Below, one piece after another: positions 41,922-64,000 of a DNA stretch of 64,000 bases; the stretch's first letter is position 1, and each line of letters opens with the position of its first letter. The notes below the pieces were generated by a model that was not told the DNA's origin, did no database searches, and was given only the letters and a program-made list of their open reading frames with translations. The translations under genes were made by a program, and so were the position numbers. The DNA lies in the NCBI GenBank assembly GCA_010093815.1, contig ML996569.1; one strand, written 5' to 3'. Source of the stretch: Pseudovirgaria hyperparasitica. Lineage: Eukaryota.

Positions 41922-42354
41922 GGCAGGGGGGAGGCCGTGAGACGTGAGGGGATGCTGGGCGGCGGGAGGGGGATGCTGGGCGACGGGAGGGAGATGCATG
42001 ACGGCGGGTTCCGTTCTTTGTACACAAGAGGCAGTCTGTCAGATTTGGCTGGGTGGTAATGTGGTTATTGGGGTGTTTTGGGGGGTCAGTGAATATTGGG
42101 GTGTTTTGGATAGAGGCCACGTGCGAGCGATCGCTGGTGTAGTATTAGCCTGGAGAGGCAGGGTGGACGTGCTGACTGGATGATGACAGCTGTCAGTCAT
42201 GACGACGACGCCGACGACCTGGATAGAAGATAACAAGCATGAGAGGCTCACGAGCGGCAGCATGTTGTAATAATAGTAATGATGATGATGGGAAAACACA
42301 CGTATACGAAACAACTGACTCCTCAACTTCCTACCCCTCTACTCACTCAGCTCA

Positions 42355-44550
42355 TCATCCATCCCTCACCACCTCACCAGCCCGCCGCACCTCCAAGCCC
42401 TCCAACGACCCCTCCGCCCTCCAGCCCTCGAGAAACTCGACAAAACTCATCAGCCCGCCCGCCCACATGCCGCCCTTGGCCCGCTCCGCCCGCTCCTCCG
42501 CACTCATCTCCTTGTCAAACGCCCCCTCCGAGTTCATATACCCGGGCGTACACCCAGCTATACACGCAAAATGCGCCGCGTCGCGCGCGATCCGGTCCGC
42601 CCATGCCGCCGTCGCTTCGGGCGTTGGTTCGATGGTCAGGCCGTCGATTTCGAGTTCCGGCTCCGGTTCCGGTTCCGGGCCCTTGGTCCCTTTCTCAGCC
42701 TCAGCCTCACCCTCACCCTTCTCCCCAGCCGCCCTCTTCCCCTTCTTCTTCGCAGCCCCAACAGCCATGCCAACAGCATGCTCAACCAAACACTCAATCA
42801 CAAACGTAAAGTTCGGGCCCGCGGCCGCTTGCAAGGGCCCCGGGAAGAAGAGGTTCGGAAAGCCGCCTGCCACGACGCCGTGGAGGGTATTTGGCGCGAG
42901 CTTCCATGCCTCGTCGAGCGAGATGCCGTGTCGGCCGATTATCGGTGCGCCGAGCCGGGTCGAGGGCGTGCCCATGCCTGTTGCGTTGAAGCCGGTGCTG
43001 TGGATTAGGATGTCTGTTTTTATGCTCCTCTCGCCTTGCTGTGCGCCTTCTTCTGCGGGGCTAGACGGAGGAGCAGCAAGGACAAGCCCGTCCGCCTCTG
43101 CCCGCACTATCGGCGTCCGCGTCACGTCTATGATCTCGACGTTATCCCGATTAAACACATCGAGGTACTCGTCGTGAAAACACGGCCGCTTGCACCACCC
43201 GGGATACCACGCCTTGAGCACCTCCGCCGTGCCCGGATCCCGCACCACACTATCCACACGCGCGCGTATCCGCTCCGAACGCACAAAGTCGAGCTCGTGC
43301 ATCTCCGCGATATGCGCCTGCAGCGTCTCCATATTCACGCCGTCGAATTTCGAGCTCGGCGTGCCGAGCAGCGCCGCATAGGACGGGAAGCGCGTCCAGC
43401 CGTCGTTGACGAGATTGACTTCCGGTGGGGGGTGGATTTTGTTCATGAACGCCGCGAAGTTGGCCTGTCGGGCGCGCTGCCAGCCTGGACTTGTCGCTAC
43501 GTCGCGGGTGAATGTGGATGGGGAAAGGGCGTGGTTATCGCGGACGTCGATGGCAGAGGGCGTGCGCTGGAGGACGGTAAGCTGGGCGGCGTAGCGGGCG
43601 AGGAAGGGGATGCATTGGATTGCCGTGGCGCCCGTGCCGATTATCGTTACGCGTTTGGATGCGAGGGAGGTGAGGCTTGGGTTGGTGGGTGAGCCGCCTG
43701 TGATGTCGTAGGCCCAGCGGGAGGTGTGGAAGGAGGGGTTTGTGAAGGATGAGAGGTTGGGTATAAGGGGCAGTTTGGGCGCGTGCAGGATCCCTGGCGC
43801 GACGAGGGCGATGGTAGCAGTTATACTGAACTTCTTCGCGGAGCTACTCTCCTCATCCTCATCCCCGTCGCTCCGCACCCGCTCTACATCAACACCCCAC
43901 ACCCCCTCCTCCTCCCTCCACCTCATCCCCCGCACACACACCCCAAACACCGCCCTGCTCCGCAGCCCATACCGCGCCACAAGCAGCTCCACATACCCCC
44001 TCACCTCCTCCCCGCCCACGTACCGCTCGCGCGGCACATACCCCGTCTCCTCCAGCAGGGGGAGGTAGATGGACGCTTCGGTGTCGCAGCGGAGCCCCGG
44101 GTACCGGTTCCAGTACCAGGTTCCGCCGAAGCTGCCCGCGGCGTCGAGGATGAGGAAGGAGGTTGCGGGGAGGGCGGATTTGAGGAGGTGGATTGCGGTG
44201 AGGATGCCGGCGAGGCCGGCGCCGATTATGAGGATGGGTGTGTGGGTTTTGGGGGAGAGGGGGGGTGGTTGGGTGGTGGTTTGGGTGGGAGGTGGAGAGG
44301 GGGCCCAGGGGTCGGTGGTGTGGAGGGAGGGGATGTATTGGGAGAAGCCGGTGCGGGTGGTGCGTTTGTTGCGTTCTTGGGCGTAGCGGGCTTGGGTTGC
44401 TGTTAGGGGGTCGGTTTGGGGGGTGGTTGTGGTGGTGGTTGAGGGTGCTGTGGGTGTTTCGGCGGCGGTGGTCGTGGTGTTGGTCATGAGCGTCTCGGCG
44501 GCGGAGACGCTCGCGGCGGGAATGTCTGGGCCCGCGGGGTCTGCTGCCAT
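42355..44550 (-). CDS. Type I Baeyer-Villiger monooxygenase (FAD/NADPH-dependent)
   Basis: IIGAGLAG, FGGTWYWNRYPGLRCD, fingerprint FTNPSFHTSRW, second Rossmann IIGTGATA, WYPGWCKRPCFHD, CTPGYMNSEG. Start placed at MAADP (44550). Confidence 0.92.
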   Translation of the reverse strand: MAADPAGPDIPAASVSAAETLMTNTTTTAAETPTAPSTTTTTTPQTDPLTATQARYAQERNKRTTRTGFSQYIPSLHTTDPWAPSPPPTQTTTQPPPLSPKTHTPILIIGAGLAGILTAIHLLKSALPATSFLILDAAGSFGGTWYWNRYPGLRCDTEASIYLPLLEETGYVPRERYVGGEEVRGYVELLVARYGLRSRAVFGVCVRGMRWREEEGVWGVDVERVRSDGDEDEESSSAKKFSITATIALVAPGILHAPKLPLIPNLSSFTNPSFHTSRWAYDITGGSPTNPSLTSLASKRVTIIGTGATAIQCIPFLARYAAQLTVLQRTPSAIDVRDNHALSPSTFTRDVATSPGWQRARQANFAAFMNKIHPPPEVNLVNDGWTRFPSYAALLGTPSSKFDGVNMETLQAHIAEMHELDFVRSERIRARVDSVVRDPGTAEVLKAWYPGWCKRPCFHDEYLDVFNRDNVEIIDVTRTPIVRAEADGLVLAAPPSSPAEEGAQQGERSIKTDILIHSTGFNATGMGTPSTRLGAPIIGRHGISLDEAWKLAPNTLHGVVAGGFPNLFFPGPLQAAAGPNFTFVIECLVEHAVGMAVGAAKKKGKRAAGEKGEGEAEAEKGTKGPEPEPEPELEIDGLTIEPTPEATAAWADRIARDAAHFACIAGCTPGYMNSEGAFDKEMSAEERAERAKGGMWAGGLMSFVEFLEGWRAEGSLEGLEVRRAGEVVRDG

Positions 44551-44989
44551 GGTTTTCTCTACTTTCTTCAGGCGCGGCGGGGAGCGGGGAATGCTGCTGC
44601 GACAGACAACGACGACGACGACGACGACAACAACGAGGAGGAGCAGAAGTGCAACAACGAGGCTCGGTACCGCCAGACCGCGCTGCAGCACATCTATATA
44701 CATACATACACACCCAAGCCCCACGTCCGTCCAGGGCATGCCTCGCTCGCAAAAGTCTAATTCCCCAAACGTCGACGACATGTCACCGGACATGGACCTC
44801 CGTGAGCACAGTGAGCACCCTCCCTCCCGCGCACCGCACACCATCCTCCGTACCCCACCCTCGCATTCGTACCAGCCCGAGGCCGCGTACTAGCACACCA
44901 GGCACGTGGACGGGTGCGACTAAATAACCGACCGCCACCTCTGTATCTACCTACTCTACCGTAGTGCAACACCTCGTATAGCCAACAGG

Positions 44990-45600
44990 CACGAACGAAC
45001 GAACGAACGAATGTACAAACGAACAAACGAATGAACGAACGAACAAACGCATGAGGCAAGTCCAAGAAACGCGGCTAATTGCGGTCTTGGCCGATCGACG
45101 ACGAACGTACGACCTCGAGGAGGAGGGAGGGAGGAGGGAGGAGGGAGGGAGGAGGGAGGAGGAGGAGGAGGAGGAGGAGGAGATAAGGAGGCCGGAGGAG
45201 GGCGGGGATTGGGCGGGATTGGCGCGCTTGGACCCCCGCGTGCGTTGGTTGCACAGCCTTACGGCCGGCGCCCGGGACGACTCCCGTTCCGAGCCGAAAA
45301 GCGCCTCGTTTACACGCTGTGGGGAGTTTCGTATCACTCACTACACGTACACGTACAGTGCTGTGTTACGCGATGCGAACTTTGCGAACATGCGAACCCG
45401 AGGGGTCGTGCCGTGCTGCTGATTAGACTTTGGGAATGCTATTACTAGATTCTTGGTAAAGTGCTAATGCGGGTGCTAAGTAATGCCCACTCACTCTCCC
45501 ACGGATATGTGTACTTCCAGATCCGTCCATCCGTCCATCTGCTGGCTGTCCATCCATCCATCTGCTGGCTGTCCATCCGTCCATCCGTCCGTCTGTCCAT
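44990..45600. repeat. Simple repeats (ACGA)n, (GGA/GGAG)n and (CCAT/CCGT)n between BVMO and esterase
   Basis: Read directly at about 44990-45050, 45117-45183 and 45520-45600. Confidence 0.85.
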
Positions 45601-45624
45601 CACGCCATCCACACACATCCACGC

Positions 45625-47344
45625 CTACGCACACACACCATCCACATCGCCAACCCCAACTGCCTCCACCACGCGTCCGTCACGCCCATACCGCAGCAGC
45701 TGGTCCGCCCGCGCCGAGCCCCATCCCAGCCGCGCCGGCCCGTCCACGGGATCGCGCATAAACGCCAGCAAATGGTCCTGCATGCTCTCCGCCACCGCGC
45801 CCTCGTACTCCGTGCTCGCGCCCGGAAAATCAACATATGTGCCAAACAGCATTGCCAGGTCGGCGTCGTGGTATGCGCCGAGGTAGGGCTTCGGCGAGAC
45901 GTCGGTGAAGTTGCCTGCGAACTCGACGCGGTATGTCAGGACGTCTGGGCCGGTGGTGGTGGTGGTGGTGCGCGCGACGGTGCTGAGCGCGGCTGGGCAG
46001 ATGAAGAGGGCGCGGGTGATCTGCTCGTTGAGGGTCTGGTTTGTGGGCGGGAAGGGCCCGAAGATGCCGCCGGTGACGACGCCTTCGTTTGTGGTGGTGC
46101 TGTAGACGAGCGGGAGCTTCGAGAAGGCGGCGCGGGCGTAGCGGTCGGCGTAGTCTGCGAAGATGATCTTGTTGTCTTGGACGGGGTAGAAGTTGAGGGT
46201 GGGCTGGGTTGGGGCCACGAGGGTGCTGTTGTCCCGGTATGTGCCGATGAAGGCTTCGATGTCGGCGGAGGGGATCTTGCGGAGGCAGTCGAGCTCGGCG
46301 GCGGGAGGGCCGGCGCAGTTGAAGTGTGTGGCGACAAAGGTGAAGTTGGACGGCTCGATGGGCACGGTGAGGTTGAGGAATGCGCTGCCGGAGGAGGCGT
46401 AGTAGCCTTTGACGATGGGGTCGTCTGCGTAGGCGAAGTTGTGGTAGTCTGTTGCTGCGGCGCCGGCGGATTGGCCCTGCGATGAGTGTCAGTAATTACG
46501 TGTGTTACACGGCAATCCATTCCGGGTATGCGCACCCAGAGTGTAATCTTGTCTGCGTCGCCGCCGAATGCTTCGATGTTGTCGCGAACCCACTCCAGTC
46601 TGCAGACATGTCAGCATGTGGTTCATGTCGAGCAGCAGTTGTCACTTACGCCATGCGCTGGTCGAGAATACCCAGGTTCTGGTCGTCCAGGCCTGCCGCA
46701 TTGGGGAAGCCGAAAATGTTCAGTCGATAGCTACAGGCCGGCAGACAGGCAATCAGTTTATACTCCTCCTGCATGAAACCAGGCCGCACTCACTTGATCG
46801 TCACGACAATATGCGCGCCCGTCCGCTCGACCCAGTGGTGCGGCAGCTGGTACGGGATATTGACCCCTCCCGTCAGAAACGACCCCCCGGTCATGAACAT
46901 CACAACCGGCAGCTTCTCCGGCCGTCCAGTCGGCGTCCACACAGCCAGATGCAGGCAGTCCTCCGACGTCTCCCCCGCAGACTCGCCCGCCGTGCTGTTC
47001 TGGCCGTCCGTGTAGATCAGCCAGCCCGGCACATCCTGGTTGAAGACGGACGGCGGCCTGCTCACGAACTGCGGACAGGACAGCGGGAACTGCGTCGCGT
47101 CATACGTGGTGCTACTGTTGGCTTCAGGTTTCGTCGGTGGCAGCCAGCGTCTCTCGCCCACCGGTGCGGCCGCGTATGGGATGCTTCTGAACTGCCGCAC
47201 GTTCGGCGTCGTGCCGTTGATCAGCCCGATATACGTCCCCGACGGCGCCTGCACGACGAGCTCGTTGTCGGTGTGTTGCTTGTGGCCCAGCGCCGGGACG
47301 GCGAGGAGGAGAAGGGGGACGATGGCGCTCCAGGAGAGAATCAT
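45625..47344 (-). CDS. Secreted type-B carboxylesterase, 4 exons
   Basis: Signal peptide; IPYAAAPVGERRW and SEDCLHLAVW; introns 46731-46793, 46600-46649, 46477-46535 restore NYRLNIFGFP and WGQSAG (nucleophile); triad candidates TNEG and AYHDADL. Confidence 0.93.
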
Positions 47345-47825
47345 GGCGAGTGGACGGCGAGGGGGGAAGCTGGTGAGTCCAGCACACGCTGGACGAGAGG
47401 CTGTGGCTACATATTAGAAGAACACAACAGAGGCAGAGCGGCACGGGTGTGTTCGTTTGGGTAATCGATTAGCCAGCAGCCTGCTACCGGATCGTATGAT
47501 CGACAGTGTATTAACTGTTTATTACGTCGACAAAGCCGTCCAGGGACTCGGGATCCGTCCGTCCCGCAAGCCATCGGGTGCTTCGGCGGGTTAGCGCACG
47601 TAGTTCTGGTACCGTGTTGGTGCATGGCAGACTGGGCTTGACACGTGATGATGCTGATATCATGGCACATGATGGCGGGCAGGGCATCGACGTCTTCTTT
47701 TGTTTTGCAAGCTCATGGGGAGTGAATATAGGGCGAAGAGTCTTCGTTTGGGCTTGCATGCGTCCGTCGCGTCGAATGATCGGCTGCCAAGACGCATCAT
47801 GGACGACAATTGGCAGACATGAAGC

Positions 47826-50149
47826 ATGAAACAGCGGGGCTCCCTCGTCTTTGTCTCAACAACATCTACGACAACGACCACCTCACTCCGTTCATCATCA
47901 CCACATCCATCGTCAACCCGACCGCGACTCACCTTCCCCGATATGTATCCCCGTCCAGATTTTGAGCGAACGGGCCTGCGCTGGCAGTCCTTGAATGGAG
48001 ACTGGGACTTTCTCTTCGACGACGAGGACGTCGGCCAGAAGGATCGCTGGTTCGATCTGGGTCTGCCCGCCTACGTTGACTTGACGGGCATTGGGGCCTC
48101 AAATGACAGTCAGTTCTCCGAAAGCGAGTCCATCACTCGCAAGATCACAGACGGCACGCAGAGCGCCATCGAAGGCAACTTCAAATCGCAAAAGTCCGCC
48201 GTCACCAGGAACAGTCTGCAAACGATCAAAGTGCCGTTCGTCTTCCAGTCGCCTGCATCGGGCCTCAACGAGCGCGGCGTCCATGAAGTCATGTGGTATC
48301 AGCGCGAAATCACCCCTCCGATCAGCGAGGACGAGATCAAGTCCGGCGACAGGCTCCTGTTGCGCTTCGGCGCCGTCGACTACGACGCCAAGGTCTGGGT
48401 AGCTGGCCAGTATGTCGGCGGTCATCGCGGCGGCCATGTCCCGTTCGACCTCGACATCACCGATGCAGTCGCCTCGTCCGACGCGAACGCGCCCGTCCCC
48501 ATCATCGTGCGTGTCTACGACTCGGCGTACGATCTGACCCAGCCGCGTGGGAAGCAGTACTGGGGTGCCAAACCCGAGAGCATATTCTACACGCCCTCAG
48601 GGGGGATCTGGCAGAATGTATGGCTCGAGACCGTCACCTCGTCGAGAATTGCAGACAGCTCCAACGGCACCGTCATCCGCTCCAACGACATTGATAGTGG
48701 GAAGCTGCACGCCTCGATCGCTGTCGCCGGTCGCAAGGCGGGGTTCCCCTACCATGTTGAGATTGAGGCATCTCTCGCAGGAGTCCCGGTGTCGAAATCT
48801 GAAGCGCTCAAATTGCCGCGTGAGAAGGACAATGTTGAGGGTACATTGAGCCTACGCCTGTCGGGAGAGCAGATCTCCAAGCTACCAGAGACCCTTACCA
48901 GCTCAGCCCCGCTTGACGATGCCCGGGCGTGGAAGGATGGCGTTGCTTTGTGGTCGCCAGAGTTTCCATCGCTCTACGACCTGACCATCCGGCTGTTCGA
49001 TGACTCGGGGGAGACCAAGCTGATTGACGAAGTCAAGACTACCACAGGCATGCGGTCGCTCGACTGGACCAGCGGCAACGGCGCGCTAAACCTGAACGGC
49101 AGGCCGTACTTTCAAGCCCTCTGTCTCGACCAGGGATACTGGCCAGACACGTTCATGACACCGCCATCCCCGGAGAGCCTCAAGGCCGATATAGAGCTGG
49201 CCAAGGCCATGGGCTTCAACGGCTGCCGCAAGCACCAGAAGGTCGAGGACCCCATCTTCATGTACTGGGCCGACCGTCTGGGCTACCTCGTCTGGGGCGA
49301 GATGGCCAACGCATACCAGTTCAGCGCCCAGTACGTCGACCGCTTCAACCAGGAATGGCTCGAGTCGGTCAAGCGCGACATCAACCATCCCAGCATCGTG
49401 ACCTGGACGCCCGTCAACGAGAGCTGGGGCTACACCGACCTGCAAGCCAACCTCGAGCAAAGAAACCACATCCGCTCCCTCTACTACCAGACAAAGTAAG
49501 CACACCCTCCCCTCAGCCCCCCTTATTCTTCTTAACACCCCTCCTCAACAGAACCCTCGACCCATCCCGTCCAATCAACGACAACTGCGGCTGGCAACAC
49601 GTCCTCACCGACCTCTCCACCTTCCACGACTACTCCGACTCGCCCGCCCTCGCAGAAACATGCTCCTCCCTCGCCGGCATCTTCAGCCCCAAAGCCAACC
49701 GCCCCGTCTGGCTCCCCGCCATCCCGCCCCACGACCCAGGCTCCGCCCACGTCCCCGGCGCCCCCATCATCTGCACCGAATTCGGCGGCGTCAACATCGC
49801 GCCCGCCAAGGGCGCAGAGGACAAGGAGTGGGGCTACACCACCGCCGCCGACCCCAGCGACCTGCTTGCGCGGATTGAGAAACTCGTCCTTGCTGTTGTC
49901 GAGGGCGGGCATTGTTCTGGCTTTGTGTGGACGCAGCTGTGAGTAGGCTTCTGGTCTTGTGATGCGTGGACTGAACTGAACTGAACTGACATTCTTGTGT
50001 GTGTGTGTGTGTGCAGGTCGGATATCGAGCAGGAGACGAATGGGCTCTATGCGTTTGATCGGACGCCCAAGTTGCCGGCTGCGGAGGTGAGGGCTGTTAT
50101 GGAGAGGGCGCTGGGGGTGTTTTATGGGAACTCCAAGGAGGTGGCGTAG
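47826..50149 (+). CDS. Glycoside hydrolase family 2 (beta-galactosidase/glucuronidase-like), apparently intracellular, 3 exons
   Basis: YPRPDF, LNGDWDF, FGAVDY, QPRGKQ, LDQGYWP, NHPSIVTWTPVNESWG (acid/base), TEFGG (nucleophile), DIEQETNG. Introns 49496-49551 and 49939-50016. No signal peptide; start uncertain (47826 or 47943). Confidence 0.93.
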
Positions 50150-51522: not shown

Positions 51523-53315
51523 CTAATCCCTGAAAAGAAATGCTGCAGACAGGGTCCTGCTCTCCGACACCCAAGGGTCTATGATATCTTGCTCAAACCG
51601 CATGCATCCCTGGATGTAAGACGCCTTGCCCTGTCTGCTATATGAACTGTTGTTACCTGCGCAGACTCTGGTAAGCCAACGGACCACCGGGTCGATAGAA
51701 AACCGGAGCCTTACATCTATCCCATAGAGCAGTCCAGATCCCCTCACAATCCGGTGAGCCAGGGTCAAAGTCGCTGTTGTTCAAAGTACAGCCTGGTAGC
51801 CAGCTCGATTGTTGAGTGTAAGAGAGATCCGGATGGTTCACGTAATCCATCTGAAGTCTCCATGCTCTTGACTGCAAAACTTCATCGGCGCCACCTGGTC
51901 GTATCAACCGCTCTTCTTTCGGAACTTGGGCTCTCTGCTGACATGCAGACCTTGTTAAGTTTCTAGCGTCCTGTCGTGTCAGGGTGATGTTGTAAGTGCT
52001 TGGTCGGCATGACCATCGGGGGTCCGGGTTTGTAGTACACTCGGGGTGGTAGGAGTATTCGATACATCCGCGTGACAGTGTGCCGCCTATCATCATGAGT
52101 TTGGTGGTAGGACGAGATAATCCGGGGTCTGGTAGTTACCGTGGCCACCATTCGTACTTGAATGCAGAATCTTGTAAGCCGCCACGCAGCTATCTCCGCC
52201 TATCTCAAATCGAGTCCCGTATTTGGTACCGAAGCTGTCGCCTAGGTGCGGATTGCCGATTCCGCCACAGTCCTTTTTCCACGCCAGTTCAAGGACGTGC
52301 CGGAGCCCGTATTCATGATCCAGAACCGTGGTGAATCGGGATTCAGGGATGAGGATTGGGAACGTCGTAGGGTCGGACCCGCAGGCGCTTTGGGTGAATA
52401 GTTGAAAACGAGGTGACGGGAGACCTGCATTGCAAGGCCCATCAGGGTTGAAGTGCTCCTGTAGACAGTCGGGGTGATAAGTGAAATTGAGTCCGCCTGT
52501 CGAGAGAAGACCTCCTACGCCTTGGTAGCATATCCGTGCAAAGACAACAGCATGACCGTGGACGTACCCCTCCCACCGTTCGGACCTGTGAGACGTCAGC
52601 AAGCCGAGCCACTGCCATTTCATCGTAAGACTTACATCCACTCATCAGCCTCCGAACACTACTCAGACAAGAATCTCGAGTTAGGAGCACAGGGGTCCCA
52701 CAGTCCGACCCAGGAAGCACACGAAATGTATGAGCTATGCCCGCAGAGTCTTTCGTGAATTCATCATGGTACATGCGCGTTACGGGCTTGGTGATTTGGA
52801 CTGCAACATCGGTACAGAATTGTTCTGCATAAGCGCCGAGGCCCTGGACGTCCGGAGATCCCTCGCAGCGTTGCGGAGCATCGCATTGCAGGATTTCAGT
52901 CATGTTCGGATTACATCTGCGTTCCATCATGGAGTATGCTGTAGTGTAACAAAGCACACTCATATAAACCGTGAGCTTGAACATCAGGCACGCCATCAGG
53001 AGGTTAGCAGTGCTGGTTGCGAAAACGTTGGAACAGTAGAGGGAAACTCCAAGATACTTGGGGTGAAACGAAGTGATATTCGAGGAATTGATCACATTGC
53101 ATCAAGCTTGGTGCCACTAATTGACTTGGAATGTAGTTTGAGACGCATTTGAGTCTGATATCTGCCAGTTCCTTGACAGGACCGAGTACGGGTGGTTTTG
53201 AAACATCATATAGTCCTCTGTTTGTAATGCAGCCGTTCAGCAGCCAGCGAGCACCGGGATTAGGATGACTGAACTCTAGCCAGGATGCTACAATGAGCGC
53301 CACTTGCGGTGCCAT
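51523..53315 (-). CDS. Cys-rich protein of about 498 aa with three diverged internal repeats, possibly secreted, 6 exons
   Basis: Introns 52976-53057, 52586-52635, 52515-52567, 52087-52139 and 51657-51714 join five ORF fragments into one open frame of 1497 nt. Repeat ends read CPNGGRGG..GGLNFTYHPDC, STNGGHGG..GCIEYSYHPEC and CNNSSY..QGCMRF. The signal peptide is weak. Confidence 0.7.
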
Positions 53316-54256
53316 GAGATAGCAAGGCTGGGCAAAGATATAAGAAACTCCCCTTGCGTCGAGATGCCTCTTTCACTGTGCCACCGCCCAGGAATGCTAG
53401 CGTGTGAACGTAGTTGGCCGCTTGCACCTCCAAACTCGAATGGTAGCACAAGGACTTACAAAGTACGATCATATGGTGAGTATATACCGATTGTTATGTC
53501 TGTGCGAGTTGTCCTGTGTCGGTTCCTATCGCCTTGCTAGCATGTCCTGGAAATGGTTCAGTCAGCTTCTCCAGTATTGATACCGGCGGAAAAGAGAGGT
53601 CTAACTCCAAGTCCGGGTCGATTCAGGTAGTATTTGGCGAAATAGGAATATGAATAGTGTTGTCTTGGGAGTCATTGCCAGAGCGACGAGGTTCTCGAGG
53701 TAAATGCTATCCCAAATGAAACGTGAGCCTAGCAATGTCGATGAAGTCAGCGCCATCATCAAAGATAACGATAAATATCACCACATCAGCCACCTTATTA
53801 CAGCTGCAATCAGTTCTTGGTCGTTGTGGTGTGACAAGTGCTTATAATACCGAAGCAGATATGTGTCAATGTGCGGTCCAAAGTAACCCCTGGTTATGCC
53901 TTGACTTACACACTACTTGTTTCTTTAAAGGTAATAAAGATGTAGGTCTTGTCTACTTTTGCGACGCCTTCTGCCTTTCTTAGACTTGCAGCAGCTATTA
54001 CCTCCTGAAATTTGACTGCAAGAAGAGCAGATGATACTTACATGATGCTCTTCGGGATCGGCCAACAAGGCTCTCTGTCAGGAACATACGCCATGTTATG
54101 ACTGGTCTTGGTCTTTTCCGCAGCTTCGACCAATCAAGTTGGGCATGGGCGAGAGTTTCAAAATGTGTGAGCGGAGAAAATGTGTGGCATGGCCGCAATT
54201 CCTAGTATTCTGGGATCATCCTGGGACATCGAATGCGTCCCTTAATCTTCGCTCAT

Positions 54257-54292
54257 GACGCCGCACTAACGACGCCGCACTAACGATGCCAC
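54257..54292. repeat. 14-bp tandem repeat (GACGCCGCACTAAC)x2 plus a partial copy
   Basis: Read directly. Confidence 0.85.
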
Positions 54293-55329
54293 AATCTTCT
54301 ATGCCATAACATGATAATGGATCGAGACTTTATTCGATAGTTGTAATCATTGTGATTTGTGGGTACGTCGCCATATAACGCTTCAACACCTAAGATTATA
54401 GCGAGCCTGTCCAATGTTAGTGACGCAAGTCAAGATAGTGCCACTTCAAACGAATGACCCAGGTAGTCGGTGCTTGTCAATTTCGAACAACTCATGCGAG
54501 GTCCCTCTAACGCTGTCAACCGTAGTATTGGTAAAGTGGTGCAAAATGCCAGGCGATCACACTGACCTTCTGGTCCTGTTGTGATCATACAAGGTCTGTG
54601 TAAAGGGTTAGACTTCTCCCGGTACAGAACAAGTCTAAGATACAACACGTTCCTGGGCAGGACTCGTCACAATCGATGGACAGTCCAAGAGACTGGCAGT
54701 GTCGCACATACAATTGATGAGCGAACGTTCCATAAAAGTCTGAGGTCGCGTTTTTCCATTTTGAAATAGTTGTGCATTTGGAGCTAAGTCTGTTTCGTGA
54801 CTAGCGTAGGCAATCCTTGTGGGGCGGGGATGTCCGGTGGGAACACGATTAATTACTCATTACAACAGGCGTCTACCTACTAATTACTTGTCTGCAACGT
54901 ATGGAATGAAAAATGCTGCTCGGCCACCATCAATCAAGATCTCACGATTCATAATATGAACCATGAGACCCTGCTCTCAAGGACATCTGATGTCCAGTTC
55001 TCGCGTTGCCTTGTGTATCGTCGCATATGGATATTCTCAGTCTGCGATTCGATGAATTATGTCTCAATTCCGTAGCGTCGATATCTGCTTACGTGTGCTT
55101 ATGGAGAAGTCGATCTTCGCTGTCTATTATAACATGGCCCAGATCTATTGGCATACAGCCTTGGCGTGGAAAACTGCTGGCCTCGAAAGCATCAGCCGAG
55201 CAAGGAGAGGCTGATCATACGAGGGATTAAAATACCCCTCGTATTTAAGATGACGTGACAATCTATGGTACGCCAGATACTTCTATAACGTTCATCTTCC
55301 ACAGCTCGACGCGAGTATCACCACTGACA

Positions 55330-56160
55330 ATGGCGGTCACTGAAATTGTTGCTGATGCTTGGGGCAAGACTGGATCTGGTTATGCTAACGTCACGGAGAA
55401 AACCACTGCCAAGGCTGCACTGCGGCTCATACAAGAGCTCGAAACCCTCAAGCCTTTGTCCATTGCGAACGGCATTGTACTCGACAACGGATGTGGAACA
55501 GGAGCCACCGCCATGGCAGTCCGATATCAATCAGCAGATATCCCAATATTGGCCACCGATATCAGTCCTGGCATGCTCGACATCCTTGACAAGAGAGAAA
55601 TTCCTGGAATCCGTACCCGCGTCGCCGACGCGCTCGATCTCAGCGTTTTGGAAGAAGATGGTGTCGACAATCATTTCAGCCATGTGCTGAGTACATTCAT
55701 GATCCAATTCACACCGGATGCCACGAAGGCTGTAGCAGAGATGTATCGCGTCTTACAGCCTGGAGGAGCTTTTGGTCTTGCGACATGGATTGAGGTGGAA
55801 ATCGTTACCAAAATCAATGAGGCAGGCAAAGCACTCGAGCCTCAGTGGAAAGCCCCTAACATGTTTGCTTCGAATTGGCCCACGACCGTTTCTGAGGTCC
55901 AAGTAAAAATGGAAGAGCTTGGATTCGTCGACATCCATACGAACGTGACTCGCGCTGACCTGGACTCTCCGTTGGAACTCTTACTCGATTACACATATAA
56001 CGGAAACCACCCGAGTGCTGTTGAGCAGATCAGGTATTGGGAGGAGCAAGGCAGACTGAAGGATTTCAAGGCCGTGTATGAGAGAAGTTTAGGAAACCTG
56101 TACGCAAAGGGACACAGATTGTCACTTCGATATATGCTCACTACCGCACGAAAGCCCTAG
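55330..56160 (+). CDS. Class I SAM-dependent methyltransferase
   Basis: Motif I VLDNGCGTG, ATDISPGML, FSHVLSTF, EMYRVLQPGG. ATG at 55330. Confidence 0.92.
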   Translation: MAVTEIVADAWGKTGSGYANVTEKTTAKAALRLIQELETLKPLSIANGIVLDNGCGTGATAMAVRYQSADIPILATDISPGMLDILDKREIPGIRTRVADALDLSVLEEDGVDNHFSHVLSTFMIQFTPDATKAVAEMYRVLQPGGAFGLATWIEVEIVTKINEAGKALEPQWKAPNMFASNWPTTVSEVQVKMEELGFVDIHTNVTRADLDSPLELLLDYTYNGNHPSAVEQIRYWEEQGRLKDFKAVYERSLGNLYAKGHRLSLRYMLTTARKP

Positions 56161-56285
56161 TAAGCACTAAGATAGTCCAAGAATCTTCATACTGCTACTC
56201 TGACGACGAGATCTACAATGACAGAGCGTGCTTACTACGAAGCCATAAGAGAGAACGACTTGCACTTCTTCTTTCTGGCCGGAGC

Positions 56286-57398
56286 TTAAAGTTCCACGAC
56301 CAGCTTTGTTGCACTAACACCCGCTTTGCACTTCTGTAGTGCCTCATCAATAGACTCCAATCCCACACCGACGACACTCGGAGGAGGTAAGCATTGCAGC
56401 TTCCCAGATTCCAATGCCCCTGTAACATAATCCTGCCAAACAGGCGTTGCGATATCATTGACTGCAAAGATCATTCCAGCCTCCACGTCTTTCGGGATGT
56501 TCGGCGGCGGCGGATGAACACATGCCAAATGTCCTCCACCTAGTTTCTCCAGAATGACCAGGTCATCTTTGTACGTCTCGAATGTAGATACGGCGTCGAA
56601 TATTCCAATAAAGGATTCGGGAGACCCCTTGACAGCTGCAACGACATCTTCTACGAATGACCCATCATGATAATCGAAGACGTCTTTAGCACCGCATGAT
56701 CGGCATAATTCAAAGTTCTTCTTGCTAGCGATAGCTATGACTCGCACTCCTGCTGCATTGGCAAGCTGAGTTGTCATGCTCCCAACAGATGATGAGCCGC
56801 CGTAGACAACAAGGGTTTTGGTCATAGGTTTCGCAGTCAACGATGGATACGGGAGTCGTAGCGCCGGTGTTTGTATACCTGGCATAGCAAATCCAGGCTT
56901 ATCGAGCGAAAGGGCGCAGACCGCTGCTTCAAGGGCGAAAGGTACGACGACGCCAGATGTGAACGAGATTTGTGGCGGCAGAATGGCTGCTTTGGTGGCC
57001 AGGACGATACAGTACTGGGCGTATGCTCCGTCTTGAGGACGACCGGTCACCAGGCTGACTGCATGGCTATGCGGAACTTGTCAGTCGTTGTGCTATCCGA
57101 AAGAGAAGTCCTTGTGGAAAGAGGAATGACTTTACCCAATGACACGATCTCCCCTCTTGAAGCGACCTTGAGCTTCGGAGCCGACTTGATGGACAACACC
57201 CGCCACATCGCATCCGAAAATTGTAGGCCACTGCTGGACAAAAACGCCAGAGTCTTGCATATGGCAGTCTAAGGGGTTGATAGCAACAGCGTGGTTATGA
57301 ATCACAAGCTCGTTCGAGCCGGCAATAGGCATTGGCGCATCCGACACTGACAGAGGAGCTCCAGCTTTCTTGAGCCATGCAGCTTTGTTGGTTGTCAT
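56286..57398 (-). CDS. MDR-family oxidoreductase, trans-enoyl-reductase-like (LovC/CipB/ToxD type), 2 exons
   Basis: NHAVAINPLD, FGCDVAGVV, FKRGDRVIG|HAV (intron 57067-57135), VYGGSSSVG, VFDYHD, GVSATKLVV. No obvious Cys4 structural-zinc lobe. Confidence 0.92.
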
Positions 57399-57749
57399 CT
57401 TGAAAGGTATTATGGAATATTGGACCGATTCGAGAGGTTTGGCGTAAGACTGAGTGGAGGACTATAACATTGTGCATTATGCATAGGATACAAGGCCATA
57501 TATATGCCTCGATCTTCATTAGTGAGCTCCTAAGCTACAATCCCGGTATTTGGAAATCTGATATCGAAGTCTGTCTTGTTAGCTGCCTGTGTACGGAATT
57601 CAAGTATGGGAATCCAAAATCCTTGCTTACGTTCCCGCTACTGAACAATCAGCCGCGGTAGAACTAACCTTGAATAGGAAAGTAGTGCGACACCACGTAA
57701 AGTGGTCAGTCATCAAACTCAGTCGTCACTGACATCTTCCCACTCACCG

Positions 57750-59258
57750 ATGCCTCCTTTATCCAAAACTGTCGATTATCTGCAATACGATGACCAGCAT
57801 CGGGTGTTGATCTGTACGAAATGTTCATATGCCATCCAGAAAAGCGCAATTGATAGCCATCTGCTTCGGCATAAGATCTATCGTGCTGCGAGGCACGAAC
57901 TCGTCCGCGCTGCATCACAATTAGACATCTTAGAGCCGGAAGATGTTTCCCTGCCCACGCCTGGCAGTGGTCCCATTGTAGGCTTGTCAATCATCGATGG
58001 ATACAAATGTGCATCGCCAAGATGTGGAAGCTTGTTCGCCAGCGTCAAACGTATGAGACGTCATTGGACTGAAGATCACAACAATGTACAGGTTCCACAA
58101 GAATTCGCCTTGTCCGTGCAGCTGCAGACATTCTTCCGTGGTACCAAGTTGAAGTACTTCCAGGTTGACTCCCTGTCCATGATGAATCCAAAGGAACAAG
58201 ATTCACCCTCTGGAAGCGCTAGCCGCCCAAAGCTTCCAAACGATGTGAACCTAGATCATATCAATGATTTCCATCATTACAACATTCATACAAGTAACAG
58301 TATGCCCGCCGTTTCTTGGGTAAAGGATCTTCCTGCGCAAGCACTATATACACCAATACTGATGAATGGGATGCTTGCCATCGCAGTGGCCCATAAGATA
58401 CTGATCGAGTCAGACCTGGGCCTCAACACGGAATTAGAGCTCTTTCGATACTACTCCTACTACGTTACCATACAGAACAGACAAGACGACGATACTGACG
58501 CAACAAGGATGCAAACCATGAAGAAGCTCAGAGCACTTTGCATGCTTTGCTCCTGGTCCGTCGATACTATTACAGTTCCATCCACGAAACGCATGGTGAT
58601 GCCGACTGTAGACGTCCTATCTATCATTACGTGTATGGAAGACATGATTGGAGAACCCACGATCTCGAATGCGAAGGCCGGGCACCTGTTTCCTCTCACC
58701 GCAATCCTCGAGACCGTGACTTCAATTGAAGATCCTGTATACGCGACTCTCAGCGTTCGAAATGTGGACTGCAATTTTGCAGACTCCCACCCCATCGGAT
58801 TTTCTACATCAACTCTCAACAAGGTCTCTTCACGTGAAGATATACCTCCGGCCATAGCAAGATCCATTGGCAGTCTTCCAATGCGTATGCGAGAGGTTTT
58901 TGGGAAGCCGAGCGAGATCAAGGACGTCTTGGCTTCGCTGTCCGCCATAAATGCACTTGAGGAATGCATAGCCCTCTACTTCACTTGCCAAGGGGAAGAT
59001 CATCATGTAGCATGGCAGGCTCTGTTATCGTGGATTGGCAGAATGTCTATGCACTTCCGAAACTTGCTCGCCAAAAACAACCCAGCCGCACTGGTTATAT
59101 TCACGCATTGGTTATTGCTTGTCAGACTGGCAGAAAAACATTACTGGTTTCTCAAAGGGTTGGCTTCGTCATTGTTGGCCGCCGTTGAGGAGCACCTGGG
59201 GGCTCTGAGTCCGGCACATCAACTCATTGAGTCCGTGATCACCCTGATTATCACATGA
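57750..59258 (+). CDS. Putative transcription regulator: OrsD/DUF3505-like zinc-finger N-terminus plus fungal TF C-terminal domain
   Basis: VLICTKCSYAI..DSHLLRH, YKCASPRC..MRRHWTEDH and VQLQTFFRG..YFQV (OrsD-like); LMNGMLAIAVAH and NPAALVIFTHW..YWFLKG resemble Upc2-type TF C-termini. No Zn2Cys6 motif. Confidence 0.75.
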   Translation: MPPLSKTVDYLQYDDQHRVLICTKCSYAIQKSAIDSHLLRHKIYRAARHELVRAASQLDILEPEDVSLPTPGSGPIVGLSIIDGYKCASPRCGSLFASVKRMRRHWTEDHNNVQVPQEFALSVQLQTFFRGTKLKYFQVDSLSMMNPKEQDSPSGSASRPKLPNDVNLDHINDFHHYNIHTSNSMPAVSWVKDLPAQALYTPILMNGMLAIAVAHKILIESDLGLNTELELFRYYSYYVTIQNRQDDDTDATRMQTMKKLRALCMLCSWSVDTITVPSTKRMVMPTVDVLSIITCMEDMIGEPTISNAKAGHLFPLTAILETVTSIEDPVYATLSVRNVDCNFADSHPIGFSTSTLNKVSSREDIPPAIARSIGSLPMRMREVFGKPSEIKDVLASLSAINALEECIALYFTCQGEDHHVAWQALLSWIGRMSMHFRNLLAKNNPAALVIFTHWLLLVRLAEKHYWFLKGLASSLLAAVEEHLGALSPAHQLIESVITLIIT

Positions 59259-59739
59259 ATGGGTAATTGGACATGCACAAATGTCTACTGTGCGTCTGCA
59301 TAGCATCCATATACAGACCGGGGACATAATACAAAGACTACTAGTAAGGTTCTGCTGAAGATGTCTCCAATGCCGAGGAGTCACTTGGGATGGGAGTCGA
59401 GGACAACGAACGCAATACACAACTCATACTAGCCGCGAGGAACCAAGACAAGGATACAGACAAGAACTTGTCAGGCCTTGAAGTGGACACATCCAAGACG
59501 GATGATTGCGCCCAAGACTGTAAGTGATCTCATGAAGGACTCTAGGCTTGAATTGATTGTAAAGATACCGGAAAATTCTTGATACTCGAGTCAGAAAGAT
59601 TTTACAACGCAATAAACACACTTTTCCAGTACAAGAAAAACCAACCCTATAAACACAACGAAACTGTGCAACTAAAATTAGAACCCATATTCTACATCCG
59701 TCATGATACGATGCCACAGCTGTCAGCTCTGAGATTCCA

Positions 59740-61694
59740 TTAATCGACATGAATCCTCCACAGCTCTCGATCCGCGCCCGACTTGAAGGAGCTTCTGGTA
59801 TGCATCATTCCAACATTGTCACTAATCAGCAGATCGCCCTGTTGCCACGAGTGTCGATAGCATACTCTACGATCATGCAGTAGACTTTCCAGGATGTCGC
59901 AAGTAGATTGAGGTCCGTTGTCAATTGTGACGATGGTTGGATCGAACCGCGTCTTCTCTTGTGGCCACCGCTCATGGTATTGCAAGCATGGTAGTCCAGT
60001 CTCTGGGTGTCTAGTCACAAGCTTGAGTCCCTGCATGACAGTCTGATCGAATGACTTTGTTGACACCGACCACGTCAATCGCTCCAACTGCTCCAGTGAA
60101 ATCTCAGCTGGGAGATTTTGGAACAGCAACCGCGATGCGGAAAAGAGAGTAAAGCCGGTGTTTTTTGGTGAGGGCGTGACAGCCGTGAAGAATTGAAACT
60201 TCGGCGGTTGTGGAACGACTCGCAGAGTTCCGTCAGGTTCTTCCACCTTTTCGGTCTTGAACAAGCCATCGAAGTGGAATGGCATCCATTCTTGCGATAA
60301 AACGTTGTTCAATCCTCCACTCTCCGATCCTTTGTCCTTGACCTCAAGCACCAGACCAAATTTCCACTTTTGTGGCTTGCCAATTTCGGACGCTTTATCA
60401 ACAAAGAGATCCCGGTTTCGTGTTCCATTGAAGCCTCGAACAATCACAGGAGAGTTCTGCTCAGCTAGCTTGCGCAACTTCAGCCCTGGGACATCTTGCA
60501 TTGATAGCTTGGCACCTGTAGTAGGTCGGATGATGAGGCCACACGGATATTGATGTTCGAACACCACCTTGGCGGTCCCCCAATCGTACAATGGTGACTT
60601 TTGGCGGAAATGTGACAGGTGTCCAGCTTCCTCAACCAATTCAAGATCTGGATCTTGCTCAAAGCTATGTCGAGGACCAGCCCGAATCGAGCCATCTACG
60701 TTTATAGCAATGCAAGTGTGCCATGGTGTTACTGTAGTCGTCGTCAAGGGAAGTGTGTTGATCGAAATTTTGTCCTCTCCAGTCGACGGATGGATAGAAA
60801 GTCGAATGTGCTGGGGGAAGTTCTCTCGGACAGCTTTGGCAAAGGCCTCACCTCTCCTCAACATAGCCTTTGCGATCTTCTCGATTCCTTTCTTATATCT
60901 ACTCTTGCTCAAGTTTTCGCCAACCACATGCTGCGTGGCCAGATCTGTCTGTAAGAATTTCAGATACCCGCAATATGTCAATAGCCTGTTCTCATCTTCT
61001 TTCAACGACTCCGGTTTCAAGTTCTCCCAGGCCGGACGGCCGAACTTGTTCATTAAAGCCAAGCGGACACTTGACGCTGTTGCTTGATATGACATCTCGT
61101 CCATGTCCTCTTCTAGTATGTCCATGCCCAAGAGATCCTTCAGTCGAGCAAATTCGATGTTGGTGTACCCGCGACTTGCAGCGATGGCTCTCAAGTGCTG
61201 CCCATATGACCACACAGTCTTGTCTGGTACTCCCAACAGATCTATGGTCGATTAGCGATGGTATATTATGACAGTAGTATATCCTACTTACCATTGTAGA
61301 CAAGACCATCAGACACTATGGAAAGCTTTGCGCCAGGCTCGTGGATATCGGCAATGGCATCACACATCCCATTGAGATGAGCCAGAGCAAGCTCCTCTCC
61401 TTTATCTGGAAGAACACCCAAAACTTTGCTCTCACTGTTGGGGGACTTGAATGGAAATGCCGGAAGTGCGAGAGCGATAGGTTTGTTGTGTTTGATGTAT
61501 CGATATATGATGGATAAGAATGTCAAAGCTCCTTCATCGCTCCTATCTTCCACGTTCGAAGAAAGCGGGCATCTATACCGATAGATGATATCGAGGATTG
61601 CTTTTGCTTTGGAGAAGAGGTCATCGGAAAAGGTACCTGTCTGCGGACTTGGCGAGTCCTGTACAGCTAATTCTGAACTGATGAGACCCGGCAT
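59740..61694 (-). CDS. Isocyanide synthase-dioxygenase fusion (Dit1/PvcA domain + TauD/PvcB-like Fe(II)/2OG domain), about 634 aa, 2 exons
   Basis: LPAFPFKSPN, KVLGVLPDKGEELAL, VSDGLVYN|D (intron 61242-61291), IRLSIH and TPWH are isocyanide synthase motifs. PFHFDG, WQQGDLLISDN..MMHTR and RELWRIH give the HxD..H facial triad and an Arg for 2OG. Start placed at MPG, downstream of a TATA-like element near 61770. Confidence 0.93.
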
Positions 61695-62070
61695 GTTGAT
61701 ATTGTCGTTGTTGAGATAGGACGAGAGATTTGTTCGAAACATCGCCATCAATCTCTGATGCACTCTTAATATATGCCATCTTCATCGAAGCAGTCGCAAC
61801 CTGCGGCCGTATCCCATCTCTTGCAGACTTTTCGTGCCCCTCTGGCATGCCCCTCTCGCCGCGTCAAAGTTTCATCGCCCTGGTGGCCAAGGTGGGCTCC
61901 TTCAACCATGCCACCTTCTTTGTTCAGGCATTACGCCGACCATTGCGTGCCCCCATGAGATATCGGGACATCGGAATATCCAATCCGGAGACTTTCTGAA
62001 AGCGACTTTGAAGGCTTCGTCCTCTCACGACGCCATTAGAACGTCTACGAGTCCGGAAATAATTGGTCTA

Positions 62071-62116
62071 CGATTCAGGCAGGATCCTTGACTCAGGCAG
62101 AAATCTTGACTCAGCA
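62071..62116. promoter_or_regulatory. Tandem TGACTCA (Gcn4/CpcA-AP1 type) sites in an 18-bp imperfect repeat
   Basis: TGACTCA at 62089-62095 and 62107-62113, degenerate CGATTCA at 62071, about 400 bp upstream of the isocyanide synthase ATG. Confidence 0.5.
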
Positions 62117-63739
62117 TTGCCGGTTTTGTCTGAGTCGTCGAATGTGGATAGGCTGGACGAAACGGGCCGTATATGGTCGCCCGGCACGGGACGTTCGCAC
62201 GCCTTCATCCATGGATCATATTCGTCTAGCGTCGCTCCTTCTGTCTGTCCCTGTCACGCCACACAGTAAAGGTGATATCATCATGAATTCAGGACTATTC
62301 TTGGAATGAATCGATGTTCGAAAAAGTGGCTTGGTGTACACCAACTGAGCCACTTAAAATGAGCTCGATACTCGGTTTCGAACGCCACTGTTGACCTCCC
62401 GGGATCAGGGATTTATCGCTGAAACGTTGTAGACACTATAATCTATCACTATTTGGCTCTTCTAGCAATTCTTCGTGCAATGAATTTGCTCAATACGAAC
62501 AGTCTATGTGGGCATTCTTACCCCCACGAGATATAGGGGCATGATAGAATAACACCCACCTTCTCCAAGTGCGACCATCCAAGAAGGTCGACGAGCTTAT
62601 CTGTACTACGAGTGTCATTAGAGCTTGAGAAGCCTCTACCCAGTGTGTCTGATGGTAGTTCAATCTATGATGCTTGGCGATCAGTGATTGCGCCGAACAT
62701 ACGAACTTCCTCTCGACCGAGATAAAATGAAATATTCAAAGCCACTCCACGCAATAATAACGGGTCCCAGAAGGTTGAAGGCTAAGCTAACCTTTGATTT
62801 TGTAGCAGTGCTCCAGCTCTCGGAAGTTACCGATGCACGACCAGACATGTTGAGCCGTGCGTCGGTACATTATTCAACCAGATGAACCTAGAAAACATGG
62901 AGGGGCGGTAGTGTCCGCAGCCTTCATCCCAGTACCGCCCATGATTCGATATCGTCATAATGTGCAAGCCTTGAGCGCCTGAAACTCGGTCCTTGGCGTC
63001 ATGGCGTCTCCTCTCACGATTCGAGCCACAGAGCGAAGCTGTGGAGTGGCAACCTGCAGCCCTATCCCTCGGCAAGCATCTTGATAGCCGGAATTTGCAT
63101 TGAGGGCCCACCTGAAACGTGAACATTACGTGCATTAGCCTGTACTATTACCTGTATGAGGTGCGATCCGTCCCTCTTGGATGCCATAATGCCCCACACA
63201 AACGGCTAACGGCCGACAGCCTTGATCAGGAAGCTGACGCTGACGTAGAGTGGATTTCGTCTGCTGTTGCGCTCATGTTCCTATTGGATCTCTCAGTCGC
63301 AAAAGCTATATCAGGTATACCGAGCCCAATAGACTTTGCAAAGCTCCCTTGCTACTCCCCTCGGTCAGTCTGATCAGGGTCTTATCAGGGTCTGGACTTG
63401 ACGCCCGGGGTGGATCTGGCTCGTGCATATAGGACATGAAGACGTATGAGTGAGACAGTATAGAACTCTCGACCAAATCTTCTTAGTTCTCCGGGTAGCG
63501 TGTCTTTAGAGTGGGCTCGTGGCTGTGTTGAAGCAGTACCATATTCGCCGTGTCCCGAGCCCGTGTAGTGTACAACATACCATCAGCAACCGGCAAAAAG
63601 TAGACGAGGAAGACTCAAACTGGAAAATTCTGATCCTCGTGTCGGTTCTTTCGTAGCAAAAAAATACTCATAAGTAGTAAGGTGCAGGATGTCGTGGCTC
63701 ATCCAAAGCGCAAAGCACTTGCTCAGTCCCACACCTACA

Positions 63740-64000
63740 ATGACAAGAACAACAACCGAAACAGTCGATATCGTGATCGTAGGAGGTAAGAGAAGTAGCC
63801 TCCTACTTGTATCCAGTATGTGCTAACACACGAAACAGGCGGCCCAACAGGTCTCCTCTCTGCCTTCCTCGCACGTCAGCTCGGTCTCAGCATCGCCGTC
63901 CTCGACTCTAAAGATAGCACACTCACAGTCGGACGCGCAGACGCCCTCAACGCACGCTCACAGCAATATCTCGAAGTCGCCGGTGTCTTAGAAGAGCTCC
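63740..64000 (+). CDS. FAD-dependent aromatic hydroxylase (phenol 2-monooxygenase/FAD_binding_3 type), 3'-truncated by the window edge; absent from the ORF track
   Basis: ATG at 63740 and intron 63786-63838 (GTAAGA..GCTAAC..CAG) give MTRTTTETVDIVIVGGGPTGLLSAFLARQLGLSIAVLDSK..VGRADALNARSQQYLE. Confidence 0.9.

Follow-up and report, generated by a model that had tools for sequence, protein, structure and literature searches.

The xan cluster of Aspergillus fumigatus is built around XanB, a fused isocyanide synthase (ICS)-dioxygenase that is presumed to use tyrosine and is proposed to form a vinyl isocyanide intermediate, 4-hydroxystyryl isocyanide, with a methyltransferase encoded nearby (in the available text of Lim et al., PMC5974471). 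The cluster further encodes a Dit2-like cytochrome P450 (XanG), an isocyanide hydratase (XanA) and a C6 transcription factor. Among bacteria, pvcABCD of Pseudomonas aeruginosa (paerucumarin) and IsnA-IsnB of Photorhabdus and Xenorhabdus (rhabduscin) have homologous ICS and dioxygenase domains, and the pvc pathway brings together an ICS, a Fe(II)/2-oxoglutarate (2OG) desaturase and a flavin-dependent ring hydroxylase acting on a tyrosine isocyanide. PvcC and PvcD form a two-component, HpaBC-like system. Here we analyze an ICS locus at the right-hand end of a 64,000-nucleotide stretch of contig ML996569.1 of Pseudovirgaria hyperparasitica (assembly GCA_010093815.1), the whole of which we refer to as the window. 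A gene for a PvcA/Dit1-type ICS fused to a PvcB/IsnB-type Fe(II)/2OG dioxygenase (ICS-TauD; 59740-61748, minus strand) lies divergently from the 5′ end of a gene for a group-A flavin adenine dinucleotide (FAD)-dependent aromatic hydroxylase (63740-64000, plus strand), and on balance we lean toward these two genes, and not the five neighboring genes of a larger candidate cluster, as the functional unit. The locus resembles xan in its fusion and in having a methyltransferase gene close by, and has the FAD hydroxylase as a partner in place of the xan set: no P450, isocyanide hydratase or C6 factor was found in the window up to position 64000, and with neither P450 nor hydratase in view the locus does not qualify as a xan cluster. 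The pvc and Isn systems differ in having separate ICS and dioxygenase proteins, and the hydroxylase of the present locus is a flavoprotein of a single component, so that its likeness to the pvc hydroxylase is an analogy of function and not homology.

The ICS-TauD gene is made up of exon 2 (59740-61241), a 50-nt intron (61242-61291) and exon 1 (from 61292), with an annotated start at 61694 and further in-frame ATGs at 61742 and 61748. Its product is 100% identical to the 634-residue protein KAF2759536.1 (P0001 in our set) of P. hyperparasitica, which is encoded on the same 1.87-Mb contig as KAF2759534.1, the likewise 100% identical dehydrogenase discussed below. Against the Pfam profile DIT1_PvcA (PF05141; cut-off 26.4), one exon reaches 107 bits over profile positions 1-71 and the other 182 bits over positions 74-271 of the 273, and the TauD domain scores 79 bits. 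Residues 33-348 match the solved isonitrile synthases 9dhm, 9dh4 and PvcA (3e59), with E values of 2e-32 to 7e-32, and residues 366-633 match PIsnB (7tcl) and PvcB (3eat) at E ∼1e-18. We placed the protein in an alignment of 14 family members, itself counted; it holds all of the invariant residues, among them the Fe triad H457/D459/H615 (HxD...H), R630, the aligned counterpart of R265 that anchors the carboxylate in PIsnB, and W427, the aligned counterpart of PIsnB W74. Also invariant in the 14 members are K463, aligned with PIsnB K107 (Leu in PvcB), and H557, aligned with PIsnB N188 (Cys in PvcB). According to the available text of the PIsnB study, vinyl-isonitrile formers carry K or R at position 107 and N or H at position 188, and isocyanoacrylate formers such as PvcB carry L and C (PMC9467999). 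The window protein therefore has the signature of PIsnB (K/H) and not that of PvcB (L/C), on which we predict a vinyl isocyanide; the signature is predictive only, because single mutants at both positions left the product of PIsnB-Ah unchanged (PMC9467999, same text). The aromatic pocket of PIsnB, formed by H101, W102, M105 and Y106, reads H, F, L and F in the window ICS-TauD, and the wider set of substrate-pocket residues (H101, W102, G104, M105, Y106, R265 and W74) is kept or conservatively replaced. Such a pocket would fit an aromatic isocyano acid and is no proof of tyrosine. Judged by its sequence, ICS-TauD is intact and bears a PIsnB-type signature for decarboxylative vinyl-isocyanide formation. 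Its relatives were taken from the best 120 protein matches listed, the lowest of which is 51% identical. Among these are close homologs, recognized by sequence only, from many Sordariomycetes, including Trichoderma proteins of 52-55% identity, and no protein from Eurotiales, Aspergillus and Penicillium included.

The FAD gene begins with exon 1 (63740-63785), an intron (63786-63838) and exon 2 (from 63839), which is cut by the end of the window. The 60 residues in view match FAD_binding_3 (E 1e-6), and a GGGPTG dinucleotide-binding motif spans the splice. We searched for related loci by scanning metagenome contigs with the family alignment, which gave 38 ICS loci, and probed their neighborhoods by tblastn with the window proteins. 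The FAD N-terminus found matches of 61 to 72% identity in four of the 38 loci (L001, L003, L004 and L018), always divergently upstream of the ICS gene, and full-length FAD probes confirmed all four. The gene is thus present at every locus (4/4) whose ICS is at least 53% identical and whose upstream flank reaches 3 kb or more; among 10 more distant loci with the same flank only L007 matched the full-length probes, partially and at 38% identity. The FAD genes of the four loci encode FAD_binding_3 and Rng_hyd_C domains (Pfam), and the best solved matches of these enzymes are VibO (E 1e-12), 3-hydroxybenzoate hydroxylase, phenol 2-monooxygenase and 2-hydroxybiphenyl 3-monooxygenase. Gene order is FAD, major facilitator superfamily (MFS) transporter, ICS-TauD at L001, L003 and L004, and at L018 the FAD gene stands directly beside the ICS gene with no MFS gene, while the genes downstream vary among the four loci (GH43 and P450, a HET gene, or nothing recognizable). 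This recurrence, a matter of sequence and gene order, supports the FAD hydroxylase as a conserved partner of the ICS. Two of the other loci, L010 and L011, come from different metagenome records and agree exactly in the coordinates and statistics of their matches, probably because one fungus was sampled twice; neither has an FAD, dehydrogenase, OrsD or methyltransferase neighbor within 10 kb on either side.

Between the two genes of the window lies a shared upstream region of ∼2 kb (61749-63739) that is gene-free by Pfam and tblastn. None of its 19 open reading frames (ORFs) of at least 55 residues has a Pfam match, tblastn with the MFS proteins of three relatives found no remnant there (the best match anywhere in the window had an E value of 0.47), and no remnant of an MFS, P450 or other gene was found between the ICS and FAD genes or in the interval from 50 to 55.3 kb. 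Its 8- to 10-mers are shared with the other promoters no more often than in shuffled sequence.

The same pairing recurs in a published catalog of fungal ICS clusters. Nickles et al. 2023 include the P. hyperparasitica genome, with one ICS and one biosynthetic gene cluster, and the present locus is their cluster 1168, for which KAF2759536.1 alone is entered (available parts of PMC10153163). In the rows of its Table S4, Corynespora cassiicola cluster 763 holds a P450, the ICS-TauD protein PSN62950 (our P0002, 64% identical to the window protein), an MFS protein and the FAD protein PSN62952; in Uncinocarpus reesii the ICS EEP78013 (our P0086, 53% identical) adjoins the FAD protein EEP78012; and ICS-TauD genes adjoin FAD_binding_3 genes in Aspergillus flavus, Aplosporella prunicola and Talaromyces rugulosus as well. 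The listed rows number at least 2,273 for DIT1_PvcA, at least 760 for TauD, at least 412 for FAD_binding_3 and at least 4 for OrsD (PMC10153163). The nearest of these relatives are the clusters from Pleosporales (C. cassiicola cluster 763 and loci L001, L003 and L004), in which the ICS is 61-64% identical and the same FAD hydroxylase stands divergently upstream. Their MFS and P450 genes have no counterpart or remnant in the part of the present locus in view, where an OrsD-like, a dehydrogenase and a methyltransferase gene lie downstream instead. The window shares the defining feature of this family, an FAD aromatic hydroxylase directly beside the ICS, and lacks its MFS gene (and the P450 gene often found with it), either between the two genes or beside them, as L018 also lacks the MFS gene. 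The ICS/FAD pair is a recurrent and already cataloged architecture, of which the window provides a new member. We found no paper that assigns a product to an ICS-TauD/FAD cluster; the literature searched yielded only the xan, crm, catalog and bacterial PvcB/PIsnB papers.

The most likely chemistry, argued by analogy, is that of a tyrosine-derived vinyl isocyanide that is then hydroxylated on the ring. The ICS domain would condense an aromatic amino acid, most likely L-tyrosine, with ribulose-5-phosphate to give an α-isocyano acid, as in the rest of its family, and the fused Fe(II)/2OG domain, with its PIsnB-type signature, is predicted to carry out a decarboxylation-assisted desaturation to 4-hydroxystyryl (vinyl) isocyanide. 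The FAD enzyme, which is phenol-hydroxylase-like, would oxidize the ring as in the pvc pathway, the simplest product being a catechol vinyl isocyanide. The core would in this way work like bacterial PvcA-PvcB plus a PvcC/D hydroxylase. A sequence-only reading of this DNA had arrived at a vinyl isocyanide, derived from tyrosine or tryptophan, and at ring hydroxylation, with the FAD hydroxylase as a pathway gene, and the K463/H557 signature and the conservation of the FAD gene beside the ICS in L001, L003, L004, L018, C. cassiicola and U. reesii agree with it. That reading went on to a methylated and possibly reduced product, for which the methyltransferase and dehydrogenase genes, absent from all 38 related loci, give no support. 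It also knew of no characterized cluster with this gene set; this holds for the literature that we searched, except that the locus had already been recorded, with the ICS alone, as cluster 1168 (PMC10153163).

The next 4.4 kb downstream of the ICS take in the remaining three genes. They encode a class I S-adenosylmethionine-dependent methyltransferase of UbiE/GtmA/RoqN-like type (55330-56160, plus strand; Pfam Methyltransf_25/11/12, E 1e-14), tail to tail with a 347-residue OrsE-type medium-chain dehydrogenase/reductase (MDR; exons 56286-57066 and 57136-57398, minus strand; Pfam ADH_N and ADH_zinc_N), and a 502-residue OrsD-family protein with a C2H2-like N-terminal domain (57750-59258, plus strand; Pfam OrsD PF12013, E 5e-25, residues 11-112). 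The sequence-only reading was right that five genes stand here, that they include two divergent pairs (start codons 351 bp apart for MDR and OrsD-like and ∼2 kb apart for ICS and FAD), that the synthase has the XanB-like fused architecture (DIT1_PvcA plus TauD) and that no polyketide synthase (PKS) or nonribosomal peptide synthetase (NRPS) is in view. Pfam found no PKS, NRPS, P450 or DJ-1/PfpI domain among the 84 ORFs of at least 140 residues to the left of the five genes, and no match at all among 66 ORFs of at least 55 residues in the two gene-free stretches, one of 5 kb that borders the methyltransferase on its left and one of 2 kb that separates ICS from FAD. It parted from the present results in taking the set as an unusual group of tailoring genes. 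A lack of conservation of the flanking genes with the synthase was named there as a ground for refutation, and this lack is seen for three of the four flanking genes, the FAD gene being the exception. Probes for the methyltransferase, for both MDR exons and for the OrsD-like protein matched by tblastn at none of the 38 ICS loci, 13 of which extend 4 kb or more past the ICS on its downstream side.

The MDR and OrsD-like genes form a conserved pair in their own right. With A. nidulans AN7914 ("Dehydrogenase orsE") the MDR shares 70% identity, and with the 119 fungal proteins listed, drawn from many classes and from Lipomyces yeasts among others, 65-73%. The MDR had been taken for a trans-enoyl-reductase-like enzyme, and its best solved match is indeed the enoyl reductase LovC (E 3e-13); it is far closer, however, to proteins named OrsE, quinone oxidoreductase or cipB, and we disfavor a role as a PKS trans-enoyl reductase since no PKS is in view and the protein is an OrsE ortholog. 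The protein labeled a zinc-finger regulator in the sequence-only reading belongs to the OrsD family; it has no Zn_clus domain, and a classic Zn2Cys6 factor was rejected on this ground. Its best relative among the matches listed is only 36% identical, no solved relative was found, and a weak Fungal_trans_2 match in three of its relatives has no equivalent in its own C-terminal 383 residues. A function as regulator is plausible. The orsellinic acid/F9775 cluster of A. nidulans has the same arrangement, with orsD and orsE encoding an OrsD domain and an OrsE-type MDR, divergent and sharing a short bidirectional promoter (available text of PMC6234034). Of that cluster the window has the orsD/orsE-type pair and none of the non-reducing PKS (orsA), amidohydrolase and tyrosinase genes. 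The accessions of the MDR and the OrsD-like protein are consecutive in all four species checked (Talaromyces proteolyticus, Tothia fuscella, Lophium mytilinum and Mytilinidion resinicola). Counted by hand, the OrsD list has 19 non-self rows, out of 119, whose longest contig equals in size that of a row in the MDR list (some of 3.6, 8.9 and 14 kb), and in a hand comparison of the rows listed no non-self OrsD or MDR row matches the ICS list in this way. In Tothia, the single ICS cluster is ∼9,000 accession numbers away from the MDR/OrsD-like pair. These patterns of sequence and linkage point to an independent, conserved divergent pair of orsE/orsD type that occurs across Ascomycota away from ICS genes. 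The pair could be a reductase with its own regulator, and the OrsD-like gene is probably outside the isocyanide pathway.

Spliced joints of the pair were seen in assembled contigs from two public runs of one sample (X1 and X2), of which we used these two joints only. Contigs spliced at the MDR intron (57067-57135) occur in both runs and confirm it, and a 74-nt intron in the 5′ untranslated region (UTR) of the OrsD-like gene (57604-57677, GT..AG) is joined in an X1 contig. An upstream ORF in the first, untranslated exon of the OrsD-like gene stops shortly past this splice, and the MDR transcript contig (to 57594) and the first OrsD-like exon both occupy the 350-bp divergent promoter region. In the protein cluster of P0260, a Talaromyces MDR, one 85-residue member (MCG2916445.1) lies on a 258-bp contig labeled Escherichia coli, and is most likely fungal contamination of a bacterial assembly.

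The methyltransferase has few relatives of any kind. Its best solved matches are 5jgj/5egp and RoqN (5w7m), the resemblance to GtmA/RoqN-type enzymes being distant, and only 11 representative clusters among 1.84 billion proteins reach E ≤1e-30, the best of them, from the lichen fungus Stictis urceolatum, at 39% identity. On these comparisons it looks like a lineage-specific orphan whose link to the pathway is unsupported. Its upstream region (54727-55326) and the MDR/OrsD-like promoter (57399-57746) have 19 8-mers in common, where dinucleotide shuffles give 6.9 ± 3.3 and none of 300 attains the observed count; the shared 8-mers are scattered and include no single repeated motif. This may be a weak hint of common regulation of the left-hand three genes as a separate module.

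Several points weigh against a two-gene unit and its predicted product. Besides the unchanged product of the PIsnB-Ah mutants, the substrate of the ICS (tyrosine, tryptophan or another amino acid) and the regiochemistry of the FAD hydroxylase are ones that we infer, and the locus is seen only up to position 64000, where the window stops inside the FAD gene. The promoter-motif method of Nickles et al. tied no neighbor to the ICS in its entry for this locus, the FAD gene included (PMC10153163). The five genes form a compact block of 8.7 kb with two divergent promoters, beside 5 kb with no recognizable genes. Three entries in the available Table S4 of the same catalog bear directly on the left-hand genes. 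In T. rugulosus, cluster 1401 holds all five Pfam families within nine consecutive genes: MDR (QKX59665), OrsD (QKX59666, our P0208), methyltransferase (QKX59667), ICS-TauD (QKX59672) and FAD_binding_3 (QKX59673). Cluster 1158 of Massarina eburnea has ADH_N, OrsD, three unrelated genes, ICS-TauD and MFS in succession, and cluster 1172 of A. prunicola has a methyltransferase, an MDR, an NRPS, ICS-TauD and FAD_binding_3 in one predicted cluster (PMC10153163).

These entries speak for treating all five genes as one cluster, in which the FAD enzyme would hydroxylate, the methyltransferase methylate, the OrsE-type MDR reduce the side chain or the oxidized ring, and the OrsD-like protein regulate. 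Recurrence of the five families in the distant T. rugulosus is more than we would expect by chance, and for this reason we retain the proposal as unlikely but deserving of consideration. It draws further on precedent: orsD and orsE of A. nidulans are co-induced members of a secondary-metabolite cluster (available text of PMC6234034), and the xan cluster likewise uses a methyltransferase, XanE (available text of PMC5974471). The T. rugulosus and Massarina clusters were, however, picked for containing OrsD, and the sample is biased to that extent. In T. rugulosus four further genes intervene between the trio and the ICS/FAD pair, and the trio runs MDR-OrsD-methyltransferase there and methyltransferase-MDR-OrsD in the window. 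The T. rugulosus OrsD protein is only 31% identical to that of the window, which makes orthology doubtful, and its ICS is not among the 120 best matches listed. OrsD is also rare in the cataloged ICS clusters, with at least four rows against at least 2,273 for DIT1_PvcA (Table S4 rows listed, PMC10153163). One of these, from A. flavus "cluster" 1486, belongs to an over-extended prediction of 1,465 rows and is uninformative on ICS linkage (PMC10153163, listed rows). In the nearest ICS relatives, P450, MFS and FAD genes take the place of the three left-hand ones, none of which was found at any of the 38 loci; the MDR/OrsD-like pair stands away from the ICS in Tothia and in Lipomyces yeasts; and the methyltransferase has no close relative anywhere among the 1.84 billion proteins. 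Three species, Lecanicillium saksenae, Aphanocladium album and Cordyceps fumosorosea, appear on both the ICS and the OrsD lists, but the longest contigs of the two proteins differ in size in each. The presence of the trio beside the ICS is most likely a juxtaposition, and three of the five genes of the supposed cluster are probably bystanders.

The same cataloged clusters lend themselves to a bolder proposal, namely that an orsE/orsD-type pair and a methyltransferase make up a portable cassette that was recruited independently next to ICS-TauD/FAD pairs in Pseudovirgaria (Acrospermales) and T. rugulosus (Eurotiales), and in part in Massarina and Aplosporella. The window would then represent a new form of isocyanide cluster, making a tyrosine isocyanide that is hydroxylated, O-methylated and reduced and that the rust hyperparasite might turn against its host. 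We regard this as speculative and rather improbable.

A different question is what the FAD enzyme would do within the two-gene core. It might dearomatize, epoxidize or ring-expand the phenol, in the manner of VibO, TropB or SorbC, and so lead to non-aromatic isocyanides such as the tyrosine-derived cyclopentyl isonitriles of Trichoderma. VibO is a ring-expanding enzyme, and among solved structures it scores best against the FAD enzyme of the relatives (E 1e-12). Isonitrin A and isonitrinic acid E derive from tyrosine, and Trichoderma carries ICS-TauD proteins that are 52-55% identical to that of the window. Both compounds are named among the fungal isocyanides in the available text of Lim et al. 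(PMC5974471). The other solved matches are nevertheless ordinary phenol or hydroxybenzoate hydroxylases with similar scores, and the window shows only 60 residues of the enzyme; we consider such a reaction doubtful, and simple ring hydroxylation remains our preferred assignment. That ICS-TauD acts alone, the FAD gene being a syntenic neighbor with an unrelated catabolic role, is very improbable, since the listing of KAF2759536.1 only in cluster 1168 (available parts of Nickles et al., PMC10153163) and a 2-kb intergenic region, long for a common promoter, are set against an ICS/FAD adjacency that persists in Dothideomycetes, Eurotiomycetes (Onygenales and Eurotiales) and metagenome contigs while other surroundings change, a persistence that is hard to explain other than by selection for linkage.

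With the two-gene core as the favored unit, the analysis narrows the locus to a minimal pair with a concrete predicted product series. The pair of ICS-TauD and phenol hydroxylase occurs, where the genomic context could be seen, in Dothideomycetes and Eurotiomycetes, and in the literature searched no product is assigned to it. Fungal isocyanides such as xanthocillin are copper-binding and antimicrobial, and to our knowledge few fungal ICS clusters have a known product. P. hyperparasitica is a mycoparasite of rusts, and an isocyanide could matter for its mycoparasitism, because the darlucin isocyanides come from a second hyperparasite of rusts, Sphaerellopsis filum (available text of Lim et al., PMC5974471).

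Elsewhere in the window the genes are ordinary, including those for AhpC, BTB, Kelch, MFS, amino-acid transporter, SWC4/DAMP1-like and VTC proteins, together with an amine-oxidase-like flavoprotein, a carboxylesterase and a GH2 protein. The intervals 34001-36000 and 40001-50000 have a G+C content of 0.60-0.62, compared with 0.43-0.56 in most of the window; the genes for the flavoprotein, the carboxylesterase and the GH2 protein fall in the block from 40 to 50 kb, directly ahead of the gene-free 5 kb. At 51900-55330, an X1 contig that spans the methyltransferase (record 1; 5,122 nt) extends ∼3 kb to the left of 55000; this leftward part has no Pfam match on ORFs of at least 55 residues and could come from a transcript that is not annotated, from a long UTR or from a non-coding RNA. 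Finally, an X2 contig over the OrsD-like gene (record 10; 57718-59903) passes the stop codon of the convergent ICS gene by 163 nt, and the 3′ ends of the two genes may overlap (59740-59903).

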